DNA from: Candidatus Heimdallarchaeota archaeon B3_Heim
GTDB lineage: Archaea; Asgardarchaeota; Heimdallarchaeia; Hodarchaeales; Hodarchaeaceae
Direction: 5' to 3'
Assembly (NCBI GenBank): GCA_003144275.1
Contig: NJBF01000010.1
Coordinates: 27,861 to 91,860 of the forward strand
Length of the DNA: 64,000 bases
Notes under the pieces: generated by a model
What the model saw: the letters and a program-made list of their open reading frames with translations, nothing else
What the model was told of the DNA's origin: nothing
The model's database searches: none
In this document: piece by piece, positions 1,617-49,212 of the stretch
Position numbering within the stretch: the stretch's first letter is position 1
Layout: the number at the start of each line of letters is the position of its first letter
Translations under genes and position numbers: made by a program

Positions 1617-2360
1617 GTGAAATTAATGGATAGAGACTTTATATTAGCGAGAGAGGCACAATTAACATATTCTAATAATGCTGCATCGGGATTCAATCCA
1701 GTAGGAGAATCTCTTGTTCGTTGGCAAGGAACATTAACTTATACAACAAACAGGGGAAGGAATATGTTCACATTTGAGATTTTCCTCCCAGAGTACTTTC
1801 CCAATGTACCTCCAGTTGTAACTGCAATTGGGTGGATGGATCATCCAAATATTGATAAAGATGGATTTATTCAGTTACGGATTCTGGATAATTGGCGAGC
1901 GGAATTTCATCTCTACCAGGTGATTATTGCTTTAAAAAATCTCATGTCTCGTGTACCACCAACCCCACGCGGAGAAACAGCTAAGTCAGTACGCGATACT
2001 ATGGTGAGAATAACTGAACCAGCAATTGAAAACAGAGATTCTAGATCAGCTGCAGAAACAAAAGCATTACGTACAGAATTAACTGCGAAGAATGCTCAAT
2101 TAACTGCAAAGGATGAAGAATTGGCCAGATTAAGAGCTAGGTCCATGATGAGCTCCGAGGAGTCATCAAAGACTCTGAGAATGAAAGTTACCGATCAACA
2201 AGTGCTAGAATCTGAACGAATTGCCATTTCTGATCTCCTATCATCATTAGAAGATCGATATACTGCTGGTGAGATCTCAATCTTTGAATATTCACGTTTA
2301 TACAAGAAATATACCAAAGAGCTTTATTTACTCCGGAAACAGTTAGAATACTTGAGCTAG
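1617..2360 (+). CDS. ESCRT-I Vps23/TSG101-like protein: UEV (catalytically inactive E2 fold) domain plus a C-terminal coiled coil
   Basis: The N-terminal ~120 aa follow the TSG101 UEV layout (beta-hairpin 'tongue', conserved ...YFPNVPPVV...HPNIDKDGFIQLRILDNW... segment, no catalytic Cys). A long heptad coiled coil follows (TELTAKNAQLTAKDEELARLRAR). The gene sits in the ESCRT cluster. Confidence 0.55.
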   Translation: MKLMDRDFILAREAQLTYSNNAASGFNPVGESLVRWQGTLTYTTNRGRNMFTFEIFLPEYFPNVPPVVTAIGWMDHPNIDKDGFIQLRILDNWRAEFHLYQVIIALKNLMSRVPPTPRGETAKSVRDTMVRITEPAIENRDSRSAAETKALRTELTAKNAQLTAKDEELARLRARSMMSSEESSKTLRMKVTDQQVLESERIAISDLLSSLEDRYTAGEISIFEYSRLYKKYTKELYLLRKQLEYLS

Positions 2361-2369
2361 GTAAAAACA

Positions 2370-2990
2370 ATGTCATTTCCTCAAAACTTATCACACAGAT
2401 GGGATCTAGAAGCCCGATTATTTGCGAATATTGGGACTCTCGATTTAATTTCACGTACTTATGATCGTGGAGAGATCGATTCGAGTACATATCATAAACA
2501 GCATAGAACCCTTCTAACTAGTATTATAGAAACACGTGCAGAGTTAGAACAGTATAATTTTGATGTTGATAGATTTATTGAAGAAGAAGGAATTAGCCAA
2601 CTTTTCCCTTCGGGTCTTTCAAAACTCAAAATGACTGAAGGAGCCGGTGATAATGCCTATAGTCGAATTGATTATTCAAGCATAAAGAAACTTCCAACAA
2701 TTGCTGCGGAGTTTGTAGCAAATGCGATTGAATTACTAGATCTTCTACATTTAGAATCAATCGCAACTGTTGATCGAGTGTTACCCTATCTTGATGAAAT
2801 TCACGATATCTTAGTTAGAGTACCAATGTATGGAAATGATCATTGGGTAACACAGGACATAAATCAGTGGATTAACTGGATGGATAAACAAAAACCAGGA
2901 CAATTATTGAAAAACAAGGAGATTAAGAAATTAGAATTACAAGGTTCTCGCTGGCTTTCTGACTTCAGAAGGGAACTAAAAAATCTATAA
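2370..2990 (+). CDS. putative ESCRT-I Vps28-like helical protein
   Basis: 206 aa, predicted all-helical, starts 10 bp downstream of the UEV gene on the same strand. Size and position match Asgard Vps28 homologues. No diagnostic motif was recognised. Confidence 0.35.
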   Translation: MSFPQNLSHRWDLEARLFANIGTLDLISRTYDRGEIDSSTYHKQHRTLLTSIIETRAELEQYNFDVDRFIEEEGISQLFPSGLSKLKMTEGAGDNAYSRIDYSSIKKLPTIAAEFVANAIELLDLLHLESIATVDRVLPYLDEIHDILVRVPMYGNDHWVTQDINQWINWMDKQKPGQLLKNKEIKKLELQGSRWLSDFRRELKNL

Positions 2991-2999
2991 GAATCGTTC

Positions 3000-4346
3000 T
3001 TATAAAAGATTAGTTTTACCAGTTCTTATAAGCAGCTCTGTCCTTTCTTCAGCAATTTTCGCTAATTCAAATTCAAATTGTTTCAAGAGTTCGAAATATT
3101 CACGACCCGCTACTTTTTTACGGCCTTCTTTTAGTTCCTGTAAGGCTCGTTTTGATGCAAGTTCATGAATGCGCAAGTCTCGTAGTCTTTCCTCTAAAAA
3201 ACCATTAACAAAATCTGGGATATTCTCTGGACTCTTACTTGGAGGCTTATTGGAGGAAGATGGGGTACTTTTATGGTTCTGAAAATTTAATGCTGCAAGG
3301 ATTTTTTCCTGATAAATTTCCGAAGACCAATCACGGAATGGTTCATTGATATACAAGTCACTTGGACGACCTAGATAACTCAACTTCAGTGAATTGAATA
3401 TCCGAATAAGATTTTGAGCATCAGACTGTATGACAAAATCTCGTTTAATAGCAGTTATTAAAAGCTTATCCCGCTTTAAAAATCCAGAGTTCTTTTTTTG
3501 TACATCCATTAGCGCTTTGGGAGAGAATTCATCACAAATGATAGTTTTATGGCTTAAAACATTAGTCCTCTTTTTCTGAAGTAATACAATCCTATCCGTT
3601 GTAATAATTAAATCAATAGTAGTCTTCCTAAAGCTATCATTATTGAGATCTAAATTTGAAAAATAGCCAATACCCAATTCACCTGGGATTAAGACGAAAA
3701 TATCGAGACATCGGGCTAGGTGTTTTCGCGTTTCATCAAATAAATCACATTTTTTCTCTACTTGTTCTATAAGGGCGGAGATAGTTTCAAGTTTCGATAC
3801 AACCGTCTGATCAAAGCTCGCTATATGTTTTTGAAATAGAGAGATTTGCAAAGATGAGTTACGAAAAGAATTCTCCGATATTGGGTGACGTACTACATTA
3901 TGGTAGATTCTTTGGAGCTTTGAAGCATATTCCTGAAATTCATTCAAAGTAAAATTTTCAATTTTCTTTGTCTCTAGAAAGATTTTATCAATCAGATTGC
4001 CAGGAATGAGAAATTGTTTGCGAAAGGAACGTAATCTTGACTCCAATTGGCCAGTTCGTTTTAAGAGGATAACAGGACGATATCCTACGTGCTTGAGAGA
4101 TCGTTTAAGGACAAAAATTTCTTCTAATAAGTCCGCTTTTCCATTTTTAATGTGGTCAAATGCTTCAATATTTGGTGATCCACAGGAACACTTGAGTTGG
4201 GAACCAGTCATAAGAGATCGTGTTGCGCATTGTTGACAAAAAGTAGCACCGCAATCTAAACACTTGTGTACCTCCGAAGAAACGAGTGCTGAACCACAAA
4301 AGGAACAGTAACCCGTCGACTCAGAAGAAGACGAACTAAGACCCAA
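3000..4346 (-). CDS. zinc-ribbon protein with a long helical/PH-like C-terminal region, unknown function
   Basis: The N-terminus carries two Cys4 zinc ribbons (CSFCGS...CLDCGATFCQQC...CSCGSP). The remainder is helical with a beta-rich middle segment. It is convergent with the Vps28-like gene inside the ESCRT locus. Confidence 0.5.
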   Translation of the reverse strand: MGLSSSSSESTGYCSFCGSALVSSEVHKCLDCGATFCQQCATRSLMTGSQLKCSCGSPNIEAFDHIKNGKADLLEEIFVLKRSLKHVGYRPVILLKRTGQLESRLRSFRKQFLIPGNLIDKIFLETKKIENFTLNEFQEYASKLQRIYHNVVRHPISENSFRNSSLQISLFQKHIASFDQTVVSKLETISALIEQVEKKCDLFDETRKHLARCLDIFVLIPGELGIGYFSNLDLNNDSFRKTTIDLIITTDRIVLLQKKRTNVLSHKTIICDEFSPKALMDVQKKNSGFLKRDKLLITAIKRDFVIQSDAQNLIRIFNSLKLSYLGRPSDLYINEPFRDWSSEIYQEKILAALNFQNHKSTPSSSNKPPSKSPENIPDFVNGFLEERLRDLRIHELASKRALQELKEGRKKVAGREYFELLKQFEFELAKIAEERTELLIRTGKTNLL

Positions 4347-4687
4347 AGACGTTCCCTATCTATCATAGAATGAATGTAGATTTTTAAGTAAATATAACAT
4401 TACAGAAAGATGACAAGAAAGGAACAAGTAGAGGAGGAAAAGTTCTAGCGCTATTTTGAATTTATCATTTACTAAGAACCTGAAATTCCAATTCTTCCAG
4501 AAAAAGCAATATCCTCCTCATAAATCCCATTTTTCATCTTCCTACTCTCCATAGAGAACTGTTTCTTGACGAAAAGAATAAACAAATTCTCTACTCTGAT
4601 TTCTAGTATCGTATTGTAAAAAATTATAAATAAAGAACTTTGAAGTCTAATTGAACTTAACATAATTAAATCTCGAGGAACAATAAG

Positions 4688-5407
4688 ATGGGCCTTAGAC
4701 GTATAGAAGAGAAAATAACTCAGGAAGCGGCAATGAAGGTAAAGGGTAGTCAATTGGCCCTCTTGTCTCTCAATGAGATGAGTAAAAAGATAAGAAATTT
4801 ACACAAAGAACTTCAGAAGCTAGAATCTCAATATAAATCTGACATTAAGAAGAATCCCGACCTAGCCCAGAAGGTTATGAAACTAAGGGAGGAGCTAGGA
4901 CTTCCTCTTGCAATTGGAATATATGATGTAGGTAAAAAACCTTCATTCAAATCACGACTGCAGGGAAATGATGAATATATTAACTATTTAGGACTAAGAA
5001 TTATAGAGATTGGTAAACAGATACGGAATCATACAGGGGGTATCTTAAGCGTATCAGAATTAATCTTGAAACTTAATGATGAAAGTAAAGGAATTGTGGT
5101 TTCTATTTCAGACGTCAATAACGCTTTGGAACTTTTAACTTCGAATGGATTAATTCATCAGATACGAACACTCGTAGGAATGAAAATTATCGAGTTTATT
5201 GACCCAGAACTGACACAAGATCATCAACGTATACTTGAGTTGGCAGCACAGGCTAATGGCCAGCTTTCAATGACTGAATTAGTTCAAAAATCAACTTGGA
5301 CAATAGAACGAGTAGAACGATCTATAGAAGTTTTGATCAATAAAAAAGTAGCAATCAAATCTAATACCTTAGATGGCATATTAATATCATTTCCAGGTGT
5401 AGGATAG
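4688..5407 (+). CDS. ESCRT-II Vps22/EAP30-like protein (tandem winged-helix)
   Basis: 239 aa with an N-terminal helical hairpin followed by two winged-helix-like units, which is the EAP30 size and architecture. It lies directly upstream of two ESCRT-III genes and Vps4. Confidence 0.5.
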   Translation: MGLRRIEEKITQEAAMKVKGSQLALLSLNEMSKKIRNLHKELQKLESQYKSDIKKNPDLAQKVMKLREELGLPLAIGIYDVGKKPSFKSRLQGNDEYINYLGLRIIEIGKQIRNHTGGILSVSELILKLNDESKGIVVSISDVNNALELLTSNGLIHQIRTLVGMKIIEFIDPELTQDHQRILELAAQANGQLSMTELVQKSTWTIERVERSIEVLINKKVAIKSNTLDGILISFPGVG

Positions 5408-24279: not shown

Positions 24280-26172
24280 TCAAGGGTTTCGCCGTTTTCT
24301 GATTACAGGAAAAACTGCTAGGACTAGTAACAAATATGTAAAGCCTGGAGAGATGGTAGGAGTTGTTGGTTCTGTTGTGGTGGTAACTGTGGATTTTTCC
24401 GTGGTTGATATAATTTCAGAAGTTGTTGTATTTGTTGTAGTGGTGGTCGTTGATGTTGTGGTGTTCGTCGTGGATACATGTTCAGAAGCATCATATACAA
24501 TACTTAGCAGTTCTACTTGAAAATAGAGATCTCCATCACCATATGCCTCTTCTGAGAGTATAGTGAAATTCTTTACCTGATTGATTGCCATGCCAATTAA
24601 CGCTTCTTCAAATTTTAGGAGGAAAGCAGAGCGGGCTTCTGGATAAAAAGCTAGTATATCAGGGGGGACAGTTTGTTCTATGGAGAGATAGATATTGTTT
24701 AGTTCGACATTTGTATATCCAGGAACTTCAACACTATAATTGTTATCTTCATATAATGTATGACGGACATTGACAATATCTCCCCAATCGGCAGTATTTT
24801 CTTGGGGTTGATCAGACCAAGCAATGGCTGTATAAGTTGGATCATGATAGATTTCTCCACCGTACCATTCTGGAAATTCTGTAAACGTCAAATAAAGGAA
24901 TTGGTTTACCACTTCAGTGTGTTGGCCTGCTCCTGGAAGTACGATATTTGGTGCTATTTTAGATGCCACAAACACGGTAGATGACCAAGCAAGCGAAAGT
25001 TCTACCGTAAAATATGCTTTTGCTACATTGGTGAATGTCCAACCACTTGGATCAAACAAAGTAACGTATACATCACGATTTACGTCAGGATCAATGTTGA
25101 AGGGGGCGAAATCTAACTCTCTAAGTTTGTAGGTCATCTTATCCTTAAAACTAGTCCAAAAGAATACATTACCATTGTTTTCAACGTCAATTGTTGGATT
25201 TTCTGGATCATCTAAGTGAGTAGCATATTGAGGATTGCTAACTGTCTCTACATCAAACCAGTTTGTGGCAGTGATAACAGTCAAACCAAAGGCATCAGCC
25301 CTGCTCATTCTTAGTTTGGCATCATTCTCAATATAGAACGCCATTTCTGGTAGAGTAATGCTTACACTGTCCGGAAATATCCCTGAACTTCCATATGTAC
25401 TCATATCAATACCTTGTAAAGCAGCAGGAACATCTAGAGTATAGCTGGGGGATTCTATAAAAGGAGAGCCTTCCCAAATCCCTGCGTTGGCAGCAATAAA
25501 GGCAGCATCATCACCTATCGTCGCAAAGAAACTTGATTCACCGATGTGATACTTTGTCTCAACTGTTCCTAGATTGATTGTAATTGCAGGAGTGGTTGGT
25601 AATTCAATCTCTTCTACCTCAAATGAGTATTCAAATGCAAGATGATCAAGAACTGAAACAGCCACAATATCTTGCCCATATATATTACCTTTAGTATCTG
25701 GAAGCTGCAAACCAGCTGCACTGAGGATATCTGGCCCTCTCAGTTCCACATCAACATCTTGCCATAAAACTAACATATTAGTATAATTGATTCCAAAGTT
25801 ATACCCTGTTACAGTTTGTTCAAAGCTAGCTTCATAATCAAAGTGAGGAATTCGATAGGAAGTATGAGGAGCTAAGTTAGCGTTTAACGCATCAGCCAAT
25901 TCTTGAACTGCAAACGTATATCCCATATAGAGATTATTGCCACTATCCATTCGTAAGGAATCTGCACCAGTACTTTTGGAATAAGCAATTAATCCCATAA
26001 AATTGTTTGTTACGAAAGCCTCAGTCCCCCAAGGAGTATTGTAGTGTTGAACTAATTGCTGGAAGGGGGCTGTTGCATTGACATGGAATATATTTGACTC
26101 AAGAGCTGCAGATGAACCTGGTAAGAGAGAATCCCCAAGAGCCTCGAGAATGGTAACTACATCAAGAGGCAA
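24280..26172 (-). CDS. cell-surface (S-layer-like) protein with a Thr-rich linker and PGF-CTERM sorting signal; N-terminal part apparently supplied by 26173..26508
   Basis: C-terminus is ...TTTSTTTTTTNTTTSEIISTTEKSTVTTTTEPTTPTISPGFTYLLLVLAVFPVIRKRRNP (PGF + TM helix + basic tail). The predicted start is a TTG immediately after an in-frame TAA. No signal peptide at this N-terminus. Confidence 0.6.
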   Translation of the reverse strand: MPLDVVTILEALGDSLLPGSSAALESNIFHVNATAPFQQLVQHYNTPWGTEAFVTNNFMGLIAYSKSTGADSLRMDSGNNLYMGYTFAVQELADALNANLAPHTSYRIPHFDYEASFEQTVTGYNFGINYTNMLVLWQDVDVELRGPDILSAAGLQLPDTKGNIYGQDIVAVSVLDHLAFEYSFEVEEIELPTTPAITINLGTVETKYHIGESSFFATIGDDAAFIAANAGIWEGSPFIESPSYTLDVPAALQGIDMSTYGSSGIFPDSVSITLPEMAFYIENDAKLRMSRADAFGLTVITATNWFDVETVSNPQYATHLDDPENPTIDVENNGNVFFWTSFKDKMTYKLRELDFAPFNIDPDVNRDVYVTLFDPSGWTFTNVAKAYFTVELSLAWSSTVFVASKIAPNIVLPGAGQHTEVVNQFLYLTFTEFPEWYGGEIYHDPTYTAIAWSDQPQENTADWGDIVNVRHTLYEDNNYSVEVPGYTNVELNNIYLSIEQTVPPDILAFYPEARSAFLLKFEEALIGMAINQVKNFTILSEEAYGDGDLYFQVELLSIVYDASEHVSTTNTTTSTTTTTTNTTTSEIISTTEKSTVTTTTEPTTPTISPGFTYLLLVLAVFPVIRKRRNP

Positions 26173-29165: not shown

Positions 29166-30461
29166 ATGGCAGCTGGCAAAACTGATTTATTATATATTTT
29201 TTTAGGATTGGTTCTTACTATATCTGTTTTTGCGTCTGGAACAGGAAAAATTACCCAGATTACAACAAATGTGCAGATTCCATCAGTAGGGTTGGTTGGG
29301 ACATGGATGGATGACACAGGATATAATGAAACATTTGAAATTGTCAATGAAAATGCTACCCATTTCATATTAGATATTTATGGAAATGATACAATTCCCA
29401 TTACCTCTTATGTTAGTAAAGCTGTATGGATTGATTATTCGTATCTATGGGAAGGAATTATGGGGTGGCCAGGCTGGATTAGTGTTAATGGGTTAACCAT
29501 AGGAGAAAAAGTAACAGTAGGTGATTCATCCTTTGAAGTTGTTAGCGTAGATTACCTCACCACCCCGTTAGGCACATATTCAGTTTATATAGTTAATGCA
29601 ACGGACGGTCGTTCTTATAATTATGGCGTGAACACTGGATTTCTGCTTGGATACCGTTCTGGTTCTAGTTTCCACTTTCTTACCGCAACCAACGGAGATT
29701 TGAGTAAGGATTCTTACCAAGGCGGTGTCCACGTTCCTTTTGTGGGTTTTCGTGCTGTTTATCTACTGGATGGAGGTGTCAATGAAACTGTCGTGATTAC
29801 AGGGGAGAATTCTTCCCATTATTTCGTAGATCTGTTTACTGATGGGATTCTCATTGATCAGTCCTTTATTTCTAAATTCATTTGGATGGATCGAGTGTAT
29901 CTATGGAATGGAATTATGGGGTGGCCTATTTGGATCAATGTCACGGATTTAACTCTCGGTCAAAATGTAACACTCGGTATAGAAAGCTATGAGGTTATCG
30001 ATAAGACTAGCCTTACGGTACCGGTTGGTGATTTTGTAGTGTGGAATATATCAAGAACACTAGAAAATAGGACGTATTGGTATGAAGTTAGCTCCGGCCT
30101 TCTTATTGCCTATGCCTTCCCTAATGAATATCACTACCTTGCTGCTACTAATGCAGTTAATGAAACAGAATCTACAACCACTGAACCGCTAACTACTACA
30201 TCTCCTCCTACAACTACTACACCGGGAACAGAAACTACAACCACTGAACCTGAAACGACAGAACCACTAATCAGTTCTACTACGACTGCCTCCTCGGAAG
30301 ATTCTACGAGTGATGAATCTGAAACTACCACTTCAGAAAGTGATTCATCCATAACAAACGATTCCACTGTTCCTTCACTCTCACCAGGCTTTTCTCTTCC
30401 TGTAGGACTAATAACTATCGGGATAATATTTCGGATAATTAGGAATCGTAAAAAGAAATAA
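29166..30461 (+). CDS. secreted glycoprotein candidate with an internal tandem duplication, Thr/Ser-rich linker and PGF-CTERM anchor
   Basis: Signal peptide (LLYIFLGLVLTISVFASG). Two homologous ~95-aa units (VWIDYSYLWEGIMGWPGWISVNGLTIGEKVTVG... / IWMDRVYLWNGIMGWPIWINVTDLTLGQNVTLG...). More than 10 NxS/T sequons. C-terminus ...TTTEPLTTTSPPTTTTPGTETTTTEPETTE...SLSPGFSLPVGLITIGIIFRIIRNRKKK. Confidence 0.65.
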   Translation: MAAGKTDLLYIFLGLVLTISVFASGTGKITQITTNVQIPSVGLVGTWMDDTGYNETFEIVNENATHFILDIYGNDTIPITSYVSKAVWIDYSYLWEGIMGWPGWISVNGLTIGEKVTVGDSSFEVVSVDYLTTPLGTYSVYIVNATDGRSYNYGVNTGFLLGYRSGSSFHFLTATNGDLSKDSYQGGVHVPFVGFRAVYLLDGGVNETVVITGENSSHYFVDLFTDGILIDQSFISKFIWMDRVYLWNGIMGWPIWINVTDLTLGQNVTLGIESYEVIDKTSLTVPVGDFVVWNISRTLENRTYWYEVSSGLLIAYAFPNEYHYLAATNAVNETESTTTEPLTTTSPPTTTTPGTETTTTEPETTEPLISSTTTASSEDSTSDESETTTSESDSSITNDSTVPSLSPGFSLPVGLITIGIIFRIIRNRKKK

Positions 30462-32787: not shown

Positions 32788-32899
32788 AGTTTTTGGCGAT
32801 TGTTATGTTGCTTGATTAGATTTCTTATATATTTCCACTAATTAATCAGACTGACGAACAATTTTAAAACCTAACAAGTTTTTCAAGAATTGTTTCATT

Positions 32900-34564
32900 A
32901 TGTCTTTAGTTTACATGAAAGTATTGGAGAAAGATCCAAAGACATACGATTGGGAGTTTAAAAAGAGATTCCCTGAAGTTGAACATATTTATGAGTTGAT
33001 AAAGACCAGAATTGGGGAACAGGGACGTGTTCTTGAAATTGGGAGTGGAACAGGACGATTAGCGATTGATATAGCTAAACAGGGGTTAGAAGTAACTGCA
33101 ATTGATGTTTCTGAAGAGATGATCAACCATGCAAGAATAACTGCGGGAAAAGAGAATATAGACTTGGAGTTCATCATTGGTAACTTCCTTGCTCTTCCTA
33201 TATTCGAACAACTTCAAGAATCTGGATCATTTGATTTCATTATCTCCACATTTGCTTTATCTGAAATGTCTCCTCTTCAACAAACATTATTCCTGAAACA
33301 AATATCCCTTTTACTAAAACAGGAAGGAATTTGCTTTCTGGTTACCGATACCGCCCCTAGTTCAGGAATATCCAAGATAGGTTTTTCGATTAGAAATTTT
33401 ATTCGTGCGCAAGTTTCGATTTTTAAGGACATCCCCTCCACAAACCCTGTAAAGAAAGTAGAGACTAAAATCGATCCCTTTTTTGAAAGTACACTTCAAT
33501 TTCAAAAGAAAACAATCAAGTTATTCGAAATCACTAAGAAAGTTGAAGACTCAGCCATATCTGAAGAGCTTCCATCCGTTAAAGCTATTTTAGGATCATA
33601 TTCACAATTAAAAACTGCTTATTGTATCGTCAATGGAATATTGACAAGAAAGAGCGTACCTCCTGGCTTATATCGGATTGGGAATCCACGAAGAAATTCA
33701 CCAGTTCTGGTAACTGCAAATTACTATTGGACGGTAGATTCTGTATTTAAACTTCTTCACAAGGAGACTATTGATTGCTTTCTATTAATAGTAGATTCAA
33801 ATGGAATAAATGTGTGGTGTGCTGCAGGGGGAGGCCATTTTACACATACACAAATATTAGACGCAATTAGGTTATTTGATGTCAAAGAAATGATTGATCA
33901 TTCTACCATAATATTACCTCAATTATCAGCAACAGGAGTAGATCGAAAGGAATTGTCTAAAGCAGGTTGGAAACCAGTTTTTGGCCCCGTAGATATCAAA
34001 AATGTTAATACATTTCTAGAATCATTCACAAAAAAATCTAAAACAGCGATGGTTGAGTTTAACTTAGCATTTAGAACTCTAATGGGAATACAACATGCGT
34101 TCTTTATTAGTTGTGTTCTTTTCCTCCCTTTGTTACTGATTCTTGGTATTTTAGCGGCTATAGAGATTCCATTGACATCTTTTTGGTTTTCTGTTGTATT
34201 TCAGCTGTTTATCCTCGGTTGGATTATTAATATGCTATTTATTTGGGGTTACCCAATTTTTAACTTCACATCTTCTTTCTTTAAAAAGGGCCTTTCAGTA
34301 GCAATAATCAACTCAATTGTGGTTTTATTTTATCTGATAACTCAGATAAAGATCATATCTTTGTATAGCTTAATTTTCTGGGTCGCTTTGGTTACTGTAG
34401 TGAGTTTATTCATAATTCTAGATCTTGCTGGGAACACCCCTTTTACTAATCACTTAGATGTTGAAAGCGATCTGACTCTGTTCATGGTACCGGCATTGAT
34501 TCTTTGCCTTATTGCGATATTTATTCCGTTGGTTAGTTCAGATATTAAACACTTATTATTTTGA
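32900..34564 (+). CDS. hgcA: fusion protein: N-terminal class-I SAM-dependent methyltransferase domain + HgcA-like corrinoid-binding domain + C-terminal 5-TM domain
   Basis: aa 40-160 carry MTase motif I VLEIGSGTGRLAID, post-I acidic residue (EVTAIDVS) and motif IV-like FDFIIS. aa ~250-370 carry SPVLVTANYYWTVDSV...DSNGINVWCAAGGGHF (HgcA cap-helix motif N(V/I)WCA(A/G)GK, with K replaced by G). aa ~390-554 carry 5 hydrophobic helices. Confidence 0.7.
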   Translation: MSLVYMKVLEKDPKTYDWEFKKRFPEVEHIYELIKTRIGEQGRVLEIGSGTGRLAIDIAKQGLEVTAIDVSEEMINHARITAGKENIDLEFIIGNFLALPIFEQLQESGSFDFIISTFALSEMSPLQQTLFLKQISLLLKQEGICFLVTDTAPSSGISKIGFSIRNFIRAQVSIFKDIPSTNPVKKVETKIDPFFESTLQFQKKTIKLFEITKKVEDSAISEELPSVKAILGSYSQLKTAYCIVNGILTRKSVPPGLYRIGNPRRNSPVLVTANYYWTVDSVFKLLHKETIDCFLLIVDSNGINVWCAAGGGHFTHTQILDAIRLFDVKEMIDHSTIILPQLSATGVDRKELSKAGWKPVFGPVDIKNVNTFLESFTKKSKTAMVEFNLAFRTLMGIQHAFFISCVLFLPLLLILGILAAIEIPLTSFWFSVVFQLFILGWIINMLFIWGYPIFNFTSSFFKKGLSVAIINSIVVLFYLITQIKIISLYSLIFWVALVTVVSLFIILDLAGNTPFTNHLDVESDLTLFMVPALILCLIAIFIPLVSSDIKHLLF

Positions 34565-34567
34565 AAT

Positions 34568-34843
34568 GTGATAGAGATGGTAGCTGTTATATTTATTGAG
34601 AGGTGTAATGGATGTGCTTGGTGTCTAGATGTCTGTCCACATCAAATAATAATTTTAACTAATGATAAAAAGGCTGAGATCGTTAATGAAGAACGATGTA
34701 TAGAATGTGGGGCATGTGCATTACAATGTCCAAGAGATGCAATACTAGCTCATCCACTTGGATGTGGTTGTGTTTCTAGTGTGGTACGGAAGAAGGTTCG
34801 TAAATTGCTACATCTACCTGAGAAGTCCAAGCAGTGCTGTTAG
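34568..34843 (+). CDS. hgcB: HgcB-like 2x[4Fe-4S] ferredoxin with a C-terminal Cys-Cys
   Basis: Two CxxCxxCxxxCP motifs (CNGCAWCLDVCP, CIECGACALQCP), an extra Cys (GCGC) and a terminal ...SKQCC. Starts 4 bp after the hgcA-like stop. Confidence 0.7.
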   Translation: MIEMVAVIFIERCNGCAWCLDVCPHQIIILTNDKKAEIVNEERCIECGACALQCPRDAILAHPLGCGCVSSVVRKKVRKLLHLPEKSKQCC

Positions 34844-37343: not shown

Positions 37344-39077
37344 TCAGGAGTCGTTACTAATCCACCAAAGTTTTTCATAGGGTGATTCTTTGTAGGTGTT
37401 ATCGATTACCGAGAATTCCGTACCGATAAACTTCATCATTGTTTTTTTGACTTCGTTGGGATTAAACGTTAAAAGAAGATTTGACTCATACAATTTCTTG
37501 TATAAAAAAGGATCAAGTTGATTTTGGAGTTGATTATAAGGCAGTGGTTTTCCTTCTGCGATAAGAATATTCTTGACAATATCTATTATCCATTCTTCCA
37601 ACTCTTCGCTTGTAATTGGGCGGTAAATCCTTTTTTCTTCTTTTAATGGCTTTTTGAAGATGAAAAAATAGTCCCCTTGCTGAGAGCCCTCAGGTTGAAA
37701 TAAACTTTTAGCCGATGCACGAGCTGGAGGATGATAAACTACTCTTTCAAACAAAAAACCTGTTTGAATTACGGATCGGTATAGGATATTACGAATTGAC
37801 AAACTTGGATTATGGAATGTTACCGTACAGTATTTTTCCCGTTTTAATATTGAATATATTTTGTGAAAAGCCTGTCTGAGAAGCTGCTCGTAAATTGCAA
37901 GGTCTTTGTTCTGTCTGGAATTAGCGATTATTTCATTACGTAAGATATCATCATACCCCTCTAGGATGTTTATCCAGGCCCCCCAAAGGTATAATAGTTC
38001 CCCATACTGAATGGAATGTCCATATGGAGGATCAGTAATAATAAAATCTACTGAATTTTGAGGAATGAGCTCTAATTGAGTGATGTTGGAATTTATTAAG
38101 AAAAAACTTGGTAGAGTTGCTTCGTGGAGCTCTTCAATACTGTTTACTTCTTTTATATGTTTTATCTTCAGTTTCAAGTCCTTTTTAGCCCGATATAATC
38201 CTTGCTTTCCCATAACTGCACGTTCGAATAATTGCCAAACATTTGATTCCATATAATGGGGGCAGTACCAATAGCTAGGTTGAATCCAAGACGAACTAAA
38301 GGGGCGGGATGGCCGCACGGGGGTCATCTTTGAGGCTAAGTGAACCAAACTAGAAAAAGCAAAAAGAAATGATTCTCTAAGGTCGGATTCACAGATCTTT
38401 TTAATCCGATCAAGTAATTTAGCAAGTGCAATCAGGTTTCTATATGTATAAAGATCATCAATGTTGTCATACCGCTCTTTTTTAAGGAAGGCTTTCCCAC
38501 CTGAATAATAAAGAGGGTTTTCAGGAAACCAATAGTTCAAGAGCCCTTTAGAATTAAAAAAACTGTCTATGGAATGATTTTGTATTTCATTATACCTATC
38601 GCGATCAAATGACTGTACCTTTTCTACTTTTTTTCCGTCTTGAGGACAGACATAACGCCTGTCGAATAACTTTGAATCTTGCCAAGAAAAACAGGTTGCA
38701 GGTATAATATTTCCACATTTTGGACAATTTGTTGAATAAAGATTCGAAATATCATTTTTTACATCCGCTTCTATAGCTCTAAATTCTTTTACTATTCTCA
38801 TATGTGAGATATAGCGCAATGTGTTTCTCGTGACAAATATTGAAACAGGATTAATGTCAATCCCAATAGCTTTTCTTCCTAAATGCAAGGCTTCTCCAAT
38901 AGTAACTCCACTTCCACAAAATGGATCTAAAACGATCTCTCCTGAATCATGAGTGTAGTGTTTGATATATTCTTGTATGAGTCGTTCTTGTTTTCGTCCA
39001 AAAAATTTGTGCATTACATACATTGACGAATGACCTTGAGAGGGAACTACTTTCTCAATAGGTGAAGAATTAGTCAT
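37344..39077 (-). CDS. DNA methyltransferase (N6-adenine/N4-cytosine, alpha-class order), apparently orphan
   Basis: Motif I LDPFCGSGVT (aa ~50), motif IV IITDPPYG (aa ~340), intervening region with a Cys4 ribbon (CPKCG...CPQDG). No restriction endonuclease-like neighbour. Confidence 0.75.
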   Translation of the reverse strand: MTNSSPIEKVVPSQGHSSMYVMHKFFGRKQERLIQEYIKHYTHDSGEIVLDPFCGSGVTIGEALHLGRKAIGIDINPVSIFVTRNTLRYISHMRIVKEFRAIEADVKNDISNLYSTNCPKCGNIIPATCFSWQDSKLFDRRYVCPQDGKKVEKVQSFDRDRYNEIQNHSIDSFFNSKGLLNYWFPENPLYYSGGKAFLKKERYDNIDDLYTYRNLIALAKLLDRIKKICESDLRESFLFAFSSLVHLASKMTPVRPSRPFSSSWIQPSYWYCPHYMESNVWQLFERAVMGKQGLYRAKKDLKLKIKHIKEVNSIEELHEATLPSFFLINSNITQLELIPQNSVDFIITDPPYGHSIQYGELLYLWGAWINILEGYDDILRNEIIANSRQNKDLAIYEQLLRQAFHKIYSILKREKYCTVTFHNPSLSIRNILYRSVIQTGFLFERVVYHPPARASAKSLFQPEGSQQGDYFFIFKKPLKEEKRIYRPITSEELEEWIIDIVKNILIAEGKPLPYNQLQNQLDPFLYKKLYESNLLLTFNPNEVKKTMMKFIGTEFSVIDNTYKESPYEKLWWISNDS

Positions 39078-43614: not shown

Positions 43615-46600
43615 ATGGCAACCCGAAACGAAAAACTGGTTCGGATAGAGCTTCCCTCTACTTCTGGGGTAGAAGTTGAGATTAGAGAAAGCAGAGATCG
43701 GTACGTACTGAATTTTTTCCAGAATGATAGACAAATAAATACCGCTTCTCTCTCTCAAAACAAGCTTAATCAGGATAGGCTAGTGGATCTCTTAAGTGAG
43801 GCCGGAGTGGAATTTTTTAGTTTTTCTGCAATATTTGAAATCGCTGATCTACTTGTGAATACAATTAAAGATGAATTTCAAGCTTTTTCCATAGAAGATG
43901 AACCTGCTTCAACTCCAATAACGCATGATGTTAATGATGTGACTGAAAAGTTCGGTATACTAACTGAAGATGTACTAGAAGAGGAGGATGAGATTGTTGA
44001 AGATACAGTCTCAGCAACATCAAGTAAGATTCTGACAATTCCTCCTGGAGATAAAGAACTAAAAAAGATCAAAATGCTACACTCGAAATCAGGATTTGCC
44101 ACAATATATTATACTCCCGAAGGAAAATTTGCTATAGTCTTATCTCGCAATGATGAATTGTTACTGAGAAAAGTCTATTCTAAAGACGATGTAAATCAAG
44201 ACAAGGTTGTAGAATTAATCAGTGAATCAGGAATTGATTTTCTTTCCTTTTCTGCAATATATGATTCTGCAGAGCAAATTGAATCACTAATCTTAAATCC
44301 AGAGAAATTTGAATCAGAAGATACTGTCTCAATTCCTCAAATGGACACTATAGTTGATGTCGCTGATCCTTCACCTATTTTAAAGTCGAAATCAGCAGCT
44401 ACCTCAGAACAAGATGAAGTGACACTCGTTGATTTATCCGATTTTGATACGTCTGAATTCAATAAGGCTGATGATTTTGATAAATTTATCAACAAGGTTA
44501 AAGAAGTCGTAGAAGTAGGACAACCTCTTCCTGTTAAGGAAGTGGAGATTGCTCATTCGGGTGGAGTGGATTGTATTATCCTCAGAAAATTTGATGATTG
44601 GTTTTTACGTTTTCGCAAGTCTGATGGTTCAATATCTGCCCCTACAGAAATAAAAATTGATCAGGATGAAATCGCTCGTCTGATAAATCAGGAAATCCCC
44701 CAAATTTCTTTTAGTTACTTGTATGATGCTTCAGAATTGATTTTTCAAACTATTGGTGGTTTAGCAACAAAGCCAATGGACCAAATCATCATTAATGTGG
44801 CTGTTGGTCACTTCTTAAGAATTATTGAACAGAATGAAGCAAAGGGGAATCTTAAAGCCGCATCGAAAATCACTGAGGTTTTGCTTAAGCGTTTTCGTAA
44901 AGAAAACAATTCTAAGGGTATTCTACGATTTGGGAGAAAACTTGTAAAGTCTCTGATAGATCAAGGAAAAGATTCCAAAGTTGTGAAGCTCCAATCTGAA
45001 TTGATCTCAGATCTACTCAAAATTGATTTGGAATCATCTGTTGAATTCGTATTTGAATCTATAGAGATGCTGGCCGATCAAAATAAACATCTTAATGCAG
45101 CTAATTTATGTGATTTAGTTTTGGATTACTACTTGTCTGAAAAAATAGTACCTGATTCAATATCAACAATCTTACTCTTAGCTAAAAAACAAGCGGAGTA
45201 TTATAAGCATGCTCGACTACCAGTAGTAATGTGGGAGAATGCTCTTCGTTATGCCCACTTTGCCCTAAAAGAGATAGGAGCAAGTGGGGACACATTCTCA
45301 AAGGAACAAAGAGATGGATTCTTGGAGGACATTATTTTCTTAGTTGACTCTGCACTGGGAGTACAAGAAGAACGTAAAGCTAATTTTGAAATTCTGAGCA
45401 CGCTTGAAGAGACAACACAATTATTAAAAGAGATTCAAGAAAAATCCCATTATCAAAGATACGTTAATCGATTAATCCTCACCTTGGAGACTCAGGGAAA
45501 GAAGGAAAAAGCTTTAGAAATCACATTGGAAGCTTCAAAAGCACTAATGAATTCAGAAACATATGTAAAAGCGTGTGAACTTAGTAATCAAGCAATAAAA
45601 TTGTTTTATGAATTGAAAAAGGTTGAAGAAGCTGTTGATTTTAGTCTTGGAGTAGTGAGGGGACTCACTGAATTAGAAGAAATAGAGGCTGCAAAAAATT
45701 ATTTGCAGTTTGTTGAAGATCTCATTAGTAAAGCATACAAAGATAGTGATTCTCGTCGAATAGAAAAACAGCTCGCAATGGGCGATTTACTGGGGAAATT
45801 AGGGATGAAAGATCGCGCTAAATCCTTTATTCAGACCGCTCTTCAAACAATTGCAGATCCTAAGAAAAGGGAGAAAATTGTTCTGAAATATGTAGATGAA
45901 ATGCATGTGAGTCATGCTTTTCTTACCGCTCAAGAGATGATTAATTTAGAATTATCTCGGTTGTTGGAAACAAAGAAAATAAAGGATGTAATAAAATTTT
46001 GTTGCCAATTTATAGACAAATTAAGAGAGTATGGCCAAAGCGATATGATTTTCGAATATATTCGGTACATCTCTAGTTTAATGTTACAGTCAGATCATAG
46101 TGATTATAATTTACTGCAGAAGTTCATAAAAGATCTATTGACAACGAATGAGGTTGATAGAGCGGCGTTAATCTTGGATCAGCTAGTAATCCTCCAAGGT
46201 AAACAAAGTGATTATACGAGAGCAATTGATTCAATAAGTCGTTTTGTTGACCATCTTTTGGAAAGTACTCAAAGAGTCGATCTTGTCCAAAAATACGTTT
46301 TTGAGATTGCTGAAGCTTATAGACGGATGGGAGACGATCAAGGAGCGCTCGAAGTGTTGGTAAAATATCAGGAAGTCCTACTTGATTATTCAGTTGAATT
46401 ATCACAGAAAATTACTGACATCATACTAAAAGAATATGAGGCAAAAGAAGAGTATAAGAAATGTATAGAAATTGTGACTAACATCATTGATAGGCAATTA
46501 GAACAGAACATGTTTCAAGACGCATACATTTTTAGTGTTCAAAATGCTCGTTATATAGAGAGCTCTGGCAGCATTCCTGATGTCATCAAATATCTCGGAA

Positions 46601-49212
46601 AAATGAGAAATAGATTTTTAGAATTTGACAGGTTTGAAGACGCAGCTAAAATGACCGATTTAATATTTAGATTCGGTAAAACTCATCAACAATACAAGAT
46701 CGCCATCCAATCAATAAAAGAATATGCAAAAATTACTCTAGATAACGAAGACTATTTATCTGCTATCAAATTCGCTCTTAATGTCGCAAATCTCTTTGAG
46801 GAAGACAATAAACCAGATAAAGCACTTGAATTTCTTCATATGATATTCAATATTACTTTTAAACATATCAAAGAGCCTTCTCTTCAAGTATTTCGCAAGA
46901 TAATAGAAATTCATCGCGAGAAAGATGACTTCAAGAAAATCACAAAGAAAGTCGTTGATCCGTTATTAACAAAATATCCAGATGTCGCGCTACTTACGGT
47001 CGTGAATGAGGTTCTTTCTCCTCCACTCGGGGATTACATTAAGTATTCTGAAAAGTTCTTTGATCAACTAATTGAATCTTCTTCATTAACCTTTGACAGT
47101 GCAGATGGTATAATTTCATTAGTTAACCTTGTGTATGGAAGTGCGTTTGTAGATCTAGGAGATAGGTTGGTATATAAATACACAAATAAACTGACAGAGT
47201 TCGGTTTTGCTGTTGAGGCAATGAAATTAATGTCAATATTGTCAGAAAGATCAAGTTTACCATTTTCGGATCTTTTAAATAAATCTCTGGACTTCGTTCA
47301 AAATTTAGTTCAAAAAACTAACATTGAAAAAGCAAGAGAGTTTACAGATAAGTTGATTCAACATATTACAACTAACCCTGAACTATCTGCAGAGAAAAAT
47401 CACCTAGGAGCAAAAGTCAGTGATAAATTTGCACAAATGGTAGCGTTTGAGAATCCTGATCTAGCCTCAGAGTATGCTTATCTTGCTGCAGATTATCTAC
47501 GAGGAGCAAATGACTTTGATGGAGTAGTTACTATCTATAATAATCTCGCAACTCAATATTCATCCTCAAAAAGAGCCATTCGTACATTTGAGAGAGGAAT
47601 ATACATTTGTAGTAAATTTAAGGCCAAAAAACACGAAGCACAACTACTAGTTTTACTCACAAAATACCTTTGCACTATTTCAGACGACTCTGTTTTAGCA
47701 GCTTTTCAACAAACAATAGAAAAACTGGAAGAATTGGAGGATCTGGATGAACTCTTCAGAAATTGTTGTGAGATAATTACCGTGGCAATTTCAACTGATA
47801 ATCTTAATCTCGTATCAAGATATCTAGAATATATGAGTAAATTAGCCAATATGATAAACCGTTCAGAGGATATAGGTGGAATTCTGGTTTTCATGTTAAA
47901 TTACGTTACTGACATAAACGATACTGAGAAAGCAAAGAAAATTAGAAATAATATTGAGGAATTGGGTATACAGCCCAAGAAATTTAAGAAGGACTTTAAA
48001 CGCCTTTCAGAAGAACGTAGCAACTTTTTGAAGTCAAAATCAGTAAAAGACAGACAATTAATCGAAGTTGAAGCAGTAACTCCAACTTTGGTTAACACAG
48101 AGGAAATAATTACACCGATTGAAGAACCCCTTTTAGATAAAGTCATTGAGCCCGATACCGAAGAAGAAGATAAAGAGATTGTCGATTTCATTAAAGGAAT
48201 CAAATCAGAATCACCACTACCAGAACAAATGGAAACTCCACAGGTAATTCAAGAACCAGAACCTCAAATCTCTCAATTATTGGAAGATAAACCATCTTTG
48301 AAGGGGCAACCGCAAATAAGCGGTGAAGTTTTGGAAATCCCTCCGAAAGAGGATGGGACCGAAGTATCCACCATACTGAGTGATGATGAAGTTTCGAGCT
48401 TATTTTCACTTGATCCTTCCCCTGAAGAGGTTTCACAAGTGTCATCATCAATTGAAGAAGAATTATTCCCTGAAGTTGGCCAACATGGCAAAGAAGGTGT
48501 AACACTATCCGATAATGAAGTAACCACACTGTTTAGCGCTCGAGAAGATTCCAAAATGAGGGGAGCTGATGTGTTACGATCACTGTCTGAACAAGAACCC
48601 TCTGCTAGTGAGGAAGAATGGGAAGTCGATACATTTGGGCGTTTATTGAAAAAAGAAGCAACAACTCCTTCACCAGATAAAATCAGTGAACCTAAACCAG
48701 TAATATCTCCTACTATTGTTGAAGATACGTCTGGAACTCCAGATATAAGTACTCTAGAATCATCCTATAAACCCAAAGAAGAAGTAGTAAAACCCACCCA
48801 ATTAAAGTCGCTTCAATTAGAACCTGATTTGGAAAGTGAGAAAAAGAAACAGCTTCAAAGTCTACCTGATCTTGAAGAATTAGAAATGGCGCTAGTAGAT
48901 ACAGAGAGCGTGTTACCTCCTAGACACGAACCAGAACCAACTGAAGAAACGAAAAGTCTGTTCGATAAAGACATAACCAGTTCTTTAGACTCTGTTGTGG
49001 ATGCCCTTGTTGAAGACGAATCTGGTGACACACAAGATATCTTTGGAATTCCAGAAGTGTCCTACGAGGAAATCTCCGAACCACAAACTTCAAAACCAGC
49101 TGAAGTGAAACCACCTGATTTAATAGATTTATTTTCAGACGCGTTATCTGAATTAGGATCAATAACTGGGGAATCTGGAAAGAAAGGCAAGGAAAAGAAG
49201 AAAAAGAAGTAG
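43615..49212 (+). CDS. giant (1865 aa) protein: triplicated N-terminal domain, long alpha-helical solenoid, acidic disordered C-terminal tail ending in a poly-Lys stretch
   Basis: Uninterrupted 5.6-kb ORF. Three N-terminal repeats share the core ...(F/I)(F/L)SFSAI(F/Y)(E/D)... (aa ~60-80, ~200-220, ~355-375). aa ~400-1450 are helical. aa ~1480-1865 are P/E/S/D-rich with repeated [ST]LF motifs and a terminal KKGKEKKKKK. Confidence 0.8.
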   Translation: MATRNEKLVRIELPSTSGVEVEIRESRDRYVLNFFQNDRQINTASLSQNKLNQDRLVDLLSEAGVEFFSFSAIFEIADLLVNTIKDEFQAFSIEDEPASTPITHDVNDVTEKFGILTEDVLEEEDEIVEDTVSATSSKILTIPPGDKELKKIKMLHSKSGFATIYYTPEGKFAIVLSRNDELLLRKVYSKDDVNQDKVVELISESGIDFLSFSAIYDSAEQIESLILNPEKFESEDTVSIPQMDTIVDVADPSPILKSKSAATSEQDEVTLVDLSDFDTSEFNKADDFDKFINKVKEVVEVGQPLPVKEVEIAHSGGVDCIILRKFDDWFLRFRKSDGSISAPTEIKIDQDEIARLINQEIPQISFSYLYDASELIFQTIGGLATKPMDQIIINVAVGHFLRIIEQNEAKGNLKAASKITEVLLKRFRKENNSKGILRFGRKLVKSLIDQGKDSKVVKLQSELISDLLKIDLESSVEFVFESIEMLADQNKHLNAANLCDLVLDYYLSEKIVPDSISTILLLAKKQAEYYKHARLPVVMWENALRYAHFALKEIGASGDTFSKEQRDGFLEDIIFLVDSALGVQEERKANFEILSTLEETTQLLKEIQEKSHYQRYVNRLILTLETQGKKEKALEITLEASKALMNSETYVKACELSNQAIKLFYELKKVEEAVDFSLGVVRGLTELEEIEAAKNYLQFVEDLISKAYKDSDSRRIEKQLAMGDLLGKLGMKDRAKSFIQTALQTIADPKKREKIVLKYVDEMHVSHAFLTAQEMINLELSRLLETKKIKDVIKFCCQFIDKLREYGQSDMIFEYIRYISSLMLQSDHSDYNLLQKFIKDLLTTNEVDRAALILDQLVILQGKQSDYTRAIDSISRFVDHLLESTQRVDLVQKYVFEIAEAYRRMGDDQGALEVLVKYQEVLLDYSVELSQKITDIILKEYEAKEEYKKCIEIVTNIIDRQLEQNMFQDAYIFSVQNARYIESSGSIPDVIKYLGKMRNRFLEFDRFEDAAKMTDLIFRFGKTHQQYKIAIQSIKEYAKITLDNEDYLSAIKFALNVANLFEEDNKPDKALEFLHMIFNITFKHIKEPSLQVFRKIIEIHREKDDFKKITKKVVDPLLTKYPDVALLTVVNEVLSPPLGDYIKYSEKFFDQLIESSSLTFDSADGIISLVNLVYGSAFVDLGDRLVYKYTNKLTEFGFAVEAMKLMSILSERSSLPFSDLLNKSLDFVQNLVQKTNIEKAREFTDKLIQHITTNPELSAEKNHLGAKVSDKFAQMVAFENPDLASEYAYLAADYLRGANDFDGVVTIYNNLATQYSSSKRAIRTFERGIYICSKFKAKKHEAQLLVLLTKYLCTISDDSVLAAFQQTIEKLEELEDLDELFRNCCEIITVAISTDNLNLVSRYLEYMSKLANMINRSEDIGGILVFMLNYVTDINDTEKAKKIRNNIEELGIQPKKFKKDFKRLSEERSNFLKSKSVKDRQLIEVEAVTPTLVNTEEIITPIEEPLLDKVIEPDTEEEDKEIVDFIKGIKSESPLPEQMETPQVIQEPEPQISQLLEDKPSLKGQPQISGEVLEIPPKEDGTEVSTILSDDEVSSLFSLDPSPEEVSQVSSSIEEELFPEVGQHGKEGVTLSDNEVTTLFSAREDSKMRGADVLRSLSEQEPSASEEEWEVDTFGRLLKKEATTPSPDKISEPKPVISPTIVEDTSGTPDISTLESSYKPKEEVVKPTQLKSLQLEPDLESEKKKQLQSLPDLEELEMALVDTESVLPPRHEPEPTEETKSLFDKDITSSLDSVVDALVEDESGDTQDIFGIPEVSYEEISEPQTSKPAEVKPPDLIDLFSDALSELGSITGESGKKGKEKKKKK

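Follow-up and report, generated by a model that had tools for sequence, protein, structure and literature searches.

A CpaM-like methyltransferase fused to an HgcA-like corrinoid protein, beside an HgcB-like ferredoxin, in Asgard archaea

A 64,000-nucleotide stretch of contig NJBF01000010.1 from Candidatus Heimdallarchaeota archaeon B3_Heim (positions 27,861 to 91,860; the window hereafter) carries two adjacent forward-strand genes related to the mercury-methylation genes hgcA and hgcB. The first (32900..34564, ATG start) encodes a 554-residue protein in which a class-I S-adenosylmethionine (SAM) methyltransferase, an HgcA-like corrinoid domain and five membrane helices follow one another. The second (34568..34843, GTG start) encodes a 91-residue, HgcB-like 2×[4Fe-4S] ferredoxin. 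We consider it probable, although far from certain, that the pair is a methyl-relay module of the HgcAB-like lineage, passing a methyl group from SAM to Co(I) and on to a thiol-bound soft metal or metalloid. In this reading CpaM, the separately encoded “corrinoid protein-associated methyltransferase” of that lineage, became fused to the N terminus of the corrinoid/membrane protein. As the NCBIfam name of CpaM implies, the association of methyltransferase and corrinoid protein was already recognized by its curators; what differs here is the fusion state. The two-gene module is conserved across lineages and has never been characterized.

Architecture of the fusion protein

A first-pass annotation, made from the sequence without database searches, had read the two open reading frames (ORFs) as an hgcAB-like pair from an Asgard-like archaeon. 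Both ORFs are present with every peptide motif that it quoted, including VLEIGSGTG (residues 44–52), VTAIDVSE (residues 65–72), FDFIIS, SPVLVTANYYW and SNGINVWCAAGGGH (residues 300–313) in the fusion protein. The host assignment was also correct, as this protein is 100% identical to CEE45_05610 of B3_Heim, where it is labeled “hypothetical protein”. The profile searches that the annotation had suggested returned methyltransferase models for the N-terminal part and HgcA-family models for the middle domain.

An AlphaFold2 model built on an alignment of 53 family members is confident overall (predicted local distance difference test score, pLDDT, 89.9; predicted template modeling score, pTM, 0.84). 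It comprises a methyltransferase domain (residues 1–213; 32900..33538), a linker of two helices (residues 214–251; 33539..33652), a corrinoid-binding domain (residues 252–383; 33653..34048) and a membrane domain of five long helices (residues 389–545; 34064..34534) spanning residues 389–420, 426–449, 460–482, 488–512 and 518–545. The first Foldseek match of the whole protein in the PDB is the integrative HgcAB model 9a0b_A (E 2e-12), followed by many class-I SAM methyltransferases, and the solved relatives found by sequence are only corrinoid iron-sulfur protein (CFeSP) large subunits, over the last ~120 residues, and generic methyltransferases. A natural triple fusion that also contains the ferredoxin reaches a pTM of 0.86, and the two pTM values together suggest that the predicted domains could form one compact assembly. 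The second linker helix contains Cys242 (33623..33625), which is kept in 37 of the 53 family members and could sit near the cap helix or the substrate site.

The first-pass annotation had regarded the N-terminal domain as a bona fide methyltransferase, a claim that would have fallen had the Rossmann fold been incomplete. The model contains all seven strands (b1–b7) of the class-I fold, and Pfam Methyltransf_25 matches residues 44–143 with an E value of 1.9e-17. The best NCBIfam model is CpaM (NF043040; 121.5 bits, E 3.3e-35, residues 2–191), which lies below its curated cut-off of 180 bits but well above the next-best methyltransferase families, UbiG and the rest, at 45 bits or less. An end-to-end alignment of residues 1–250 with stand-alone CpaM proteins gives 27–29% identity and shows, as common features, the N-terminal motif LVYMKxLExxPxxYD (LVYMKVLEKDPKTYD in the window), SAM motif I, IDxSE, FDxIxST..SE and T..K..E. 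Residues invariant across the 53 members are M6, L9, E10, P13, L45, G48, G50, G52, D69, M74 and E122; they include the three glycines of SAM motif I (33029..33055) and the acidic motif II residue D69 within VTAIDVSE (33092..33115). By these comparisons of sequence, the N-terminal domain is a diverged orthologue of CpaM. It is therefore not without precedent as a partner of an HgcA-like protein, since stand-alone CpaM is encoded directly upstream of HgcAB-like fusion proteins. We found no paper describing CpaM, or an N-terminal methyltransferase domain on HgcA, among open-access papers and bioRxiv.

Conserved cysteines are absent from the methyltransferase domain, in which the only cysteine, Cys145, is found in 5 of 53 members; it is therefore not a thiol-based metalloid methylase of the ArsM type. 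An ArsM identity was likewise rejected on profile score (29.6 bits for an ArsM-type model with a cut-off of 240 bits).

Relation to HgcA and HgcB

In the corrinoid-binding domain, Pfam CdhD matches residues 252–372 (E 3.3e-16) through profile positions 267–386 of 387, that is, only its C-terminal part. The best HgcA-family model is NCBIfam HgcAB_like (NF043039) with 214 bits (E 3.5e-63), although this is below the cut-off of 285, and the model of HgcA itself (NF040863) gives 171 bits (E 3.5e-50) against a curated equivalog cut-off of 275. The CFeSP large subunit model, CdhE (NF003195), reaches only 83.5 bits against a cut-off of 306 and covers profile positions 323–448 of 450, so the domain does not score better against generic CdhD/CFeSP than against HgcA, an outcome that would have overturned the first-pass reading. 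A generic CFeSP identity was rejected on this score, on the confinement of the match to the C terminus and on the lack of the full-length architecture of [4Fe-4S] domain and TIM barrel. The corrinoid Rossmann-like domain is nevertheless homologous to that of the CFeSP large subunit AcsC/CdhE (PDB entries 2H9A, 2YCL and 4DJD; E ~1e-10 to PDB chains). CFeSP and its methyltransferase MeTr resemble the proposed module in that a dedicated methyltransferase loads the corrinoid. They differ from it in several respects: only the C-terminal ~120 residues of CFeSP match, the window protein is anchored in the membrane and carries a cap-helix Cys ligand, and its donor enzyme is a class-I SAM methyltransferase rather than a TIM-barrel MeTr using methyltetrahydrofolate (methyl-THF).

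The cap-helix region (33797..33838) retains N304, W306 and C307, which are invariant in all 53 sequences, and Cys307 (33818..33820) is the presumed lower axial ligand of Co. The consensus protocol for hgcA detection uses the high-stringency motif N[VI]WC[AS][AGS]GK (Capo et al. 2022, PMC10087281). The window sequence, NVWCAAGG, keeps the cysteine and has Gly311 in place of the lysine. This substitution had been noticed correctly in the first pass but taken for an unusual variant. The residues that follow the invariant N-V-W-C instead sort by lineage: stand-alone true HgcA proteins have CAAGKGT, fusions of HgcA with ferredoxin and most proteins in which the methyltransferase is fused to the HgcA-like part have CAAGGGH, and a large Lokiarchaeia-type (Loki-type) group has CAARGN(D/N). 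NVWCAAGGGH is thus the normal motif of the HgcAB-like lineage, and GK occurs only in true HgcA. The window protein has the order of corrinoid-binding domain and five transmembrane helices expected of HgcA, and departs from HgcA in cap motif, curated score and clade placement. With the HgcAB-like lineage it has both the cap motif and the CpaM association in common, the difference being that its ferredoxin is a separate protein rather than part of the same polypeptide.

The ferredoxin has two CxxCxxCxxxCP motifs (Cys 13/16/19/23 and 44/47/50/54), CIECGAC, C66-G-C68 (GCGC) and a terminal C90-C91 pair. The HgcB architecture of paired cluster motifs and terminal CC, reported in the first pass, is thus present in the 91-residue protein. 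Its top match is NCBIfam HgcB (NF040864; 66 bits, E 2.1e-18), below the cut-off of 99, and the HgcAB_like model gives 52 bits. Aligned with the true HgcB of a canonical locus (L008), it keeps CIECGAC, the equivalent of Cys73 (GCGC versus GVGC) and the terminal Cys pair, and so has every element of the HgcB motif set (two cluster motifs, C(M/I)ECGA, Cys73 equivalent and C-terminal Cys pair). The three HgcB cysteine positions retained here are those reported to be implicated in Hg handling or methylation (Zheng et al. 2024, PMC11588087; Cooper et al. 2020, PMC7305189), and the role proposed for HgcB is reduction of the corrinoid together with transport of Hg or methylmercury by its cysteines (Cooper et al. 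2020, PMC7305189). The start of the ferredoxin ORF is ambiguous: GTG at 34568 is the first start codon, and orthologues align at an in-frame ATG at 34577 (88 residues), which places the gene 3–12 nt past the end of the fusion ORF.

A neighbor-joining tree of 120 proteins, computed from their corrinoid and membrane domains (Kimura distances, 100 bootstraps, no CdhD/E outgroup), recovers a true-HgcA clan with 100% bootstrap support, from which the window protein and all methyltransferase- or ferredoxin-fused proteins are excluded. The phylogeny proposed in the first pass, with confirmed methylators and fused HgcAB paralogues, therefore places the protein outside true HgcA in all 100 replicates and, together with the scores below the NCBIfam cut-offs, bears out the suspicion of a diverged paralogue. 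The protein belongs to a subclade of 22 Asgard sequences with 100% support. All Asgard fusions of methyltransferase and HgcA-like protein group together at 65%, a grouping of Asgard proteins with true HgcA receives 18%, and the tree leaves the branching among true HgcA, the Asgard fusions and the bacterial HgcAB-like and methyltransferase-fused groups without resolution. Group hidden Markov models (HMMs) built here score the window protein at 227 bits for HgcAB-like, 194 for bacterial methyltransferase fusions, 193.5 for true HgcA and 171 for the Loki-type group. As judged from sequence, the protein is a sister of HgcA and not HgcA itself, in agreement with Lin et al. (2023, PMC10083202), who divide the family into two clades, one of fused hgcAB, with Thor- and Lokiarchaeota among its members, and the other of single hgcA. 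Because the “first 327 positions” aligned poorly, that study removed them from its alignment, and this may account for its silence on the methyltransferase domain.

These results bear directly on whether the pair encodes a bona fide mercury methylase, that is, a functional orthologue of HgcAB in which fusion has made SAM binding explicit. Like HgcAB of Pseudodesulfovibrio mercurii ND132, the window pair combines a Cys-on corrinoid domain with N-V-W-C, a five-helix membrane domain and an adjacent ferredoxin with CIECGAC, the Cys73 equivalent and a C-terminal CC; ArsR-family regulators are common in the family; and SAM, which is the experimentally established methyl donor of HgcAB (PMC11588087), is implied as methyl source in the window by domain fusion. 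On the other hand, the window protein lacks the lysine after the cap-helix glycine and hence the GK of the detection motif, carries an additional N-terminal methyltransferase and linker of ~250 residues, and lies outside the fully supported true-HgcA clan. It also scores lower with HgcA models than with HgcAB-like models, both in NCBIfam and among the HMMs built here. Its nearest tested relatives are negative: neither Pyrococcus furiosus nor Methanococcoides methylutens, both of which have fused HgcAB, produced methylmercury above controls, although Podar et al. caution that the result for P. furiosus does not prove the fused enzyme inactive. We therefore regard a mercury methylase as improbable.

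Fusion states and gene neighborhoods

The fusion is not private to one gene but the usual form among Asgard archaea and in some Chloroflexota. When one genome per GTDB species was scanned and the best 80 loci were retained, 75 of them contained the complete fusion ORF. A word-indexed search gave ~60 clusters at 90% identity with the methyltransferase and CdhD architecture, 536–570 residues long, from Heimdall-, Hod-, Loki- (Promethearchaeota), Odin-, Thor- and Hermodarchaeota and from Anaerolineae. When 1.84 billion representatives were scanned exhaustively with phmmer, 62 matches at E ≤ 1e-30 were returned; the best 150 matches include 17 fusions of methyltransferase and HgcA-like protein and 8 triple fusions, with 9 more that have long N termini and stand outside these class counts.

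That the ORF might be a chimera of a methyltransferase gene and an hgcA-like gene, created in assembly or gene calling, had been raised in the first pass. Apart from the source being a metagenome-assembled genome (MAG), nothing speaks for such an artefact. The same continuous junction recurs in an independent MAG whose protein is 89% identical (L009), in the 75 of 80 best loci and in two closed chromosomes, those of Promethearchaeum syntrophicum MK-D1 (L039) and Ca. Lokiarchaeum ossiferum (L088); some linker residues are conserved, and the AlphaFold2 model is confident across the junction. The chimera scenario is rejected on these grounds, and the probability of an artefact is negligible. One locus in the set, on contig DATKTW010000069.1 (L017), is labeled Candidatus Nanopelagicaceae bacterium and shows a typical Loki-type arsR-DUF166-acr3-fusion operon on an actinobacterial-binned contig. 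Its match statistics to the query equal those of a Promethearchaeota contig (L016), and a binning or labeling error is probable.

The three modules occur in three states. In bacterial loci L005, L006 and L092, a stand-alone CpaM of 212 residues overlaps the start codon of a gene encoding an HgcA–ferredoxin fusion; in L005 and L006 the methyltransferases score 270 and 258 bits against CpaM and their partners 379 and 372 bits against HgcAB_like (cut-offs 180 and 285). The methyltransferase is fused to the HgcA-like protein, with a separate ferredoxin, in the window, in loci L001–L004 and in 71 of the 75 complete genome loci. All three parts are fused in P0039, P0047, P0056, P0059, P0074 and 8 further representatives. 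CpaM scores remain high in fused forms (270 bits in the Anaerolineae fusion P0058 and 234 bits in the triple fusion P0047). A methyltransferase whose SAM-site residues are invariant is thus linked to a domain whose corrinoid-site residues and Cys307 are likewise invariant, by gene adjacency in some lineages and by fusion in others, and the three fusion states amount to a classical Rosetta-stone signature of physical and functional coupling. A methyltransferase neighbor was not seen at any of the three true hgcAB loci examined.

The closest known system is accordingly that of CpaM and the HgcAB-like fusion (NF043040 and NF043039; this is the clade that Podar 2015 and Lin 2023 treat as “fused HgcAB”), which is itself uncharacterized and is exemplified by the two organisms named above. 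The same three modules and the cap motif NVWCAAGGGH are present, and the window protein has its best HgcA-family scores with this system. The systems differ in that the corrinoid protein is fused to the ferredoxin there and to the methyltransferase here, and in that the separate ferredoxin of the window keeps the HgcB-type terminal CC. The window branch, moreover, is Asgard-specific, with only ~30–35% identity to the bacterial forms, and the window protein scores below the two cut-offs (214 < 285 and 121.5 < 180). This divergence below every curated cut-off explains the GenBank label “hypothetical protein”.

The methyltransferase could instead methylate some unrelated lipid or small molecule, for instance a quinone or a phospholipid head group, with the corrinoid/membrane part serving only as an anchor or redox module. 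Annotations in the source records as “UbiE/UbiG-like”, matches to generic methyltransferase families, and structural neighbors that include the phospholipid N-methyltransferase 8ys9 and CmoA are in line with this possibility. Against it stand the large margin of CpaM over UbiG and other families in profile score, the occurrence of this methyltransferase only with HgcA-like proteins and in three fusion states, and the invariance of Cys307 and of the residues that bind corrinoid, a constraint not expected of an anchor. We consider it quite unlikely.

Of the 75 complete fusion loci, 71 have a 2×[4Fe-4S] ferredoxin gene immediately downstream, and at least three of the four remaining loci are cut by a contig end just past the fusion gene. 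The ferredoxin of every archaeal orthologue has GCGC and a Cys-rich C terminus, with CC within the last eight residues in 51 of them. Six Chloroflexota/Anaerolineae ferredoxins (L078, L080, L082, L083, L084 and L086) end right after the second cluster and have no Cys tail, which means either that substrate is handled differently in these proteins or that the tail is not essential.

When neighboring genes were clustered over 78 loci, the Loki-type sister clade showed a conserved block, in which a divergent arsR is followed, in some cases after a DUF166 gene, by co-directional acr3, the fusion gene, the ferredoxin gene and two small genes, u112 and u120. The ArsR/SmtB regulator (NF033788, 70 bits, cut-off 55) is found in 34 Loki-type loci, with CxC(D/E) in 34 of 35, and the ACR3 arsenite efflux permease (TIGR00832, 277 bits, E 3e-82; cut-off 283) lies immediately upstream of the fusion gene in 29. 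The median spacing is 28 bp between acr3 and the fusion gene, 47 bp between the fusion and ferredoxin genes, and again 28 bp between the ferredoxin gene and u112. The order arsR, acr3, fusion, ferredoxin is found in MK-D1 (NZ_CP042905.2 3591868-3599394, 1333..4994) and L. ossiferum (1382..5074) and in 27 further loci among L012–L087. The small protein u112 (e.g., L023:5014-5352, forward strand) directly follows the HgcB-like gene in 26 loci and has no Pfam or NCBIfam match. It contains CxC in a beta-alpha pattern resembling thioredoxin/ArsD, some copies have a Cys-rich N-terminal extension (CCGSS..CC), and it may be a metallochaperone.

A second recurrent context consists of a MarR gene, the fusion and ferredoxin genes and, farther on, a cupin gene. 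ArsR-family regulators also precede HgcAB-like fusions (L005, L006 and L092) and true hgcAB (L008 and L091); in all, each branch of the family has members flanked by ArsR/SmtB regulators. The order in L005, a bacterial metagenome contig, is ArsR, two small ORFs of no assigned family, CpaM, HgcAB-like and MerC, the last being a gene for a MerC-family mercury transporter (PF03203; L005:5208-5639, forward strand) that overlaps the end of the HgcAB-like fusion gene.

In the window itself, a Pfam scan of the 20 surrounding ORFs found no Hg, As, cobalamin or one-carbon metabolism genes near the pair. The matches among these neighbors are an arginase, a Tag glycosylase, a glyoxalase-like protein, a DNA methyltransferase, major facilitator superfamily (MFS) transporters, transcription factor B (TFB), serine hydroxymethyltransferase (SHMT) and FttA, and the window otherwise consists of ordinary archaeal chromosomal genes such as TFB, FttA and SHMT. 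Four other loci of the same subclade have only the gene pair in common with the window neighborhood. The pair in the window is a self-contained module.

Upstream of the fusion gene, a TTTTAAAA box (32862..32869, forward strand), read from the sequence ~35 nt 5′ of the ATG, is a weak candidate for an archaeal TATA element. A scan for sigma-70 promoters and terminators was run on the window, for which the bacterial model is uninformative given the archaeal host, and no Rfam family was found anywhere in the 64 kb. Several other ORFs have no Pfam match at E ≤ 1e-5, namely a giant 1865-residue ORF (43615..49212, forward strand), a 630-residue ORF (24280..26172, reverse strand) and a 448-residue ORF (3000..4346, reverse strand). 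The 431-residue product of 29166..30461 (forward strand), which also has no Pfam match, contains two internal repeats of ~190 residues, a Thr/Ser/Glu-rich stalk and a C-terminal hydrophobic anchor ending in RNRKKK, and is probably a surface-anchored protein. Motifs of the N6_N4_Mtase/D12 class lie at the N terminus of the DNA methyltransferase (37344..39077, reverse strand, 577 residues), an RMKL-like motif lies around residue 340, and the neighboring ORFs include no obvious restriction partner.

A proposed methyl relay and its acceptor

Purified HgcAB is methylated at Co(I) by SAM and not by methyl-THF, a result its authors called “unexpected” (Zheng et al. 2024, PMC11588087), and SAM-to-Co(I) chemistry is therefore established in the HgcA protein family. 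In the relay that we propose for the window pair, the HgcB-like ferredoxin would reduce the protein-bound corrinoid to Co(I). The CpaM domain would then bind SAM and position it so that Co(I) takes the methyl group, giving CH3-Co(III), with Cys307 as lower ligand, and S-adenosylhomocysteine (SAH). The methyl group would next be passed to a thiophilic acceptor, a metal or metalloid that the thiols of GCGC and the C-terminal CC in the ferredoxin would hold at the membrane face, after which the cycle would restart. Methylation of the corrinoid by the methyltransferase, the direction of transfer, the acceptor and the supply of electrons by the ferredoxin for activation or reactivation are all inferred.

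A SAM-binding module on a cobalamin polypeptide is known from methionine synthase, MetH, whose reactivation (AdoMet) module methylates Co(I) with flavodoxin or ferredoxin as the reductant. The SAM modules have unrelated folds, and the reaction serves repair in MetH, whereas SAM would be the routine donor here.

The best lead to the acceptor is arsenite, which comes from the Loki-type arsR-acr3 operon, and Hg(II) may be a side substrate. As a refinement of the relay rather than a strict rival to it, the module could be a corrinoid-dependent, ArsM-independent arsenic methyltransferase acting beside Acr3 efflux, a possibility to which we assign only a low probability. The ArsR/SmtB regulator and the immediately upstream ACR3 of the Loki-type loci, including those of MK-D1 and L. 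ossiferum, and the Cys-rich, thioredoxin/ArsD-like u112 that follows are consistent with it, and the arsM gene itself often sits next to arsR and acr3 in ars operons. The ArsR upstream of hgcAB in ND132 is reported to respond to arsenic and to SAH (bioRxiv 10.1101/2022.10.17.512643). On the other side, ArsR-family regulators can sense SAH or other metals, the window and its own subclade lack ars neighbors, the ACR3 score is just under its curated cut-off, and the common gene order could partly reflect vertical inheritance within Lokiarchaeia. Compared with ArsM/AS3MT, the module has the class-I SAM methyltransferase fold in common and, in its Loki-type form, the place beside arsR and acr3. It differs in lacking the conserved As(III)-binding cysteines and in scoring 30 bits or less with ArsM-type models whose cut-offs are 240 or more, and the methyl group would pass through a corrinoid.

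The same metalloregulator and Acr3 context points to metals or metalloids rather than to halomethanes, for which a corrinoid reductive dehalogenase might be considered. A 2026 preprint reports dechlorination of CCl4 by heterologously expressed HgcAB (10.64898/2026.04.26.720869), and Co(I) with a ferredoxin would suit such chemistry. It has no place, however, for a SAM methyltransferase that is obligately linked and whose SAM motifs are intact. We judge a dehalogenase to be very unlikely.

Returning to the methyl relay, several observations weigh against it. Purified HgcAB takes its methyl group from SAM in the absence of any methyltransferase domain, which leaves the need for CpaM unexplained. 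The Chloroflexota ferredoxins that have no Cys tail imply that delivery of substrate by a thiol tail cannot be universal. A tblastn search of the whole 64-kb window with Loki-type ACR3 and ArsR gave no match, and ars, mer or cobalamin genes were found near 0 of 12 loci of the window's own subclade (Heimdall/Hod, GGGH/GGKH).

What HgcAB natively does and where its methyl group comes from have long been puzzling, and only in 2024 was SAM demonstrated as the donor. A sister lineage whose SAM methyltransferase always stands beside the HgcA-like corrinoid protein or is fused to it provides independent comparative-genomic support for SAM-to-corrinoid transfer in the HgcA family, and the fusion is a natural construct with a defined donor site. 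For environmental screening, “hgcA-like” matches from Asgard archaea, whether by cap helix or by HMM, should not be counted as mercury methylators. The arsR-acr3 context in Lokiarchaeia, including two cultured strains, offers a concrete hypothesis of corrinoid-dependent metalloid methylation. On a broader and distinctly speculative view, the module would be a SAM- and corrinoid-dependent, ArsM-independent methyltransferase for arsenite or another soft metalloid, obligate coupling to a SAM methyltransferase would be ancestral in the whole HgcA family, and mercury methylation would be derived or accidental. If this is true, the native function of the HgcAB family would be directly testable in cultured MK-D1 and L. 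ossiferum.

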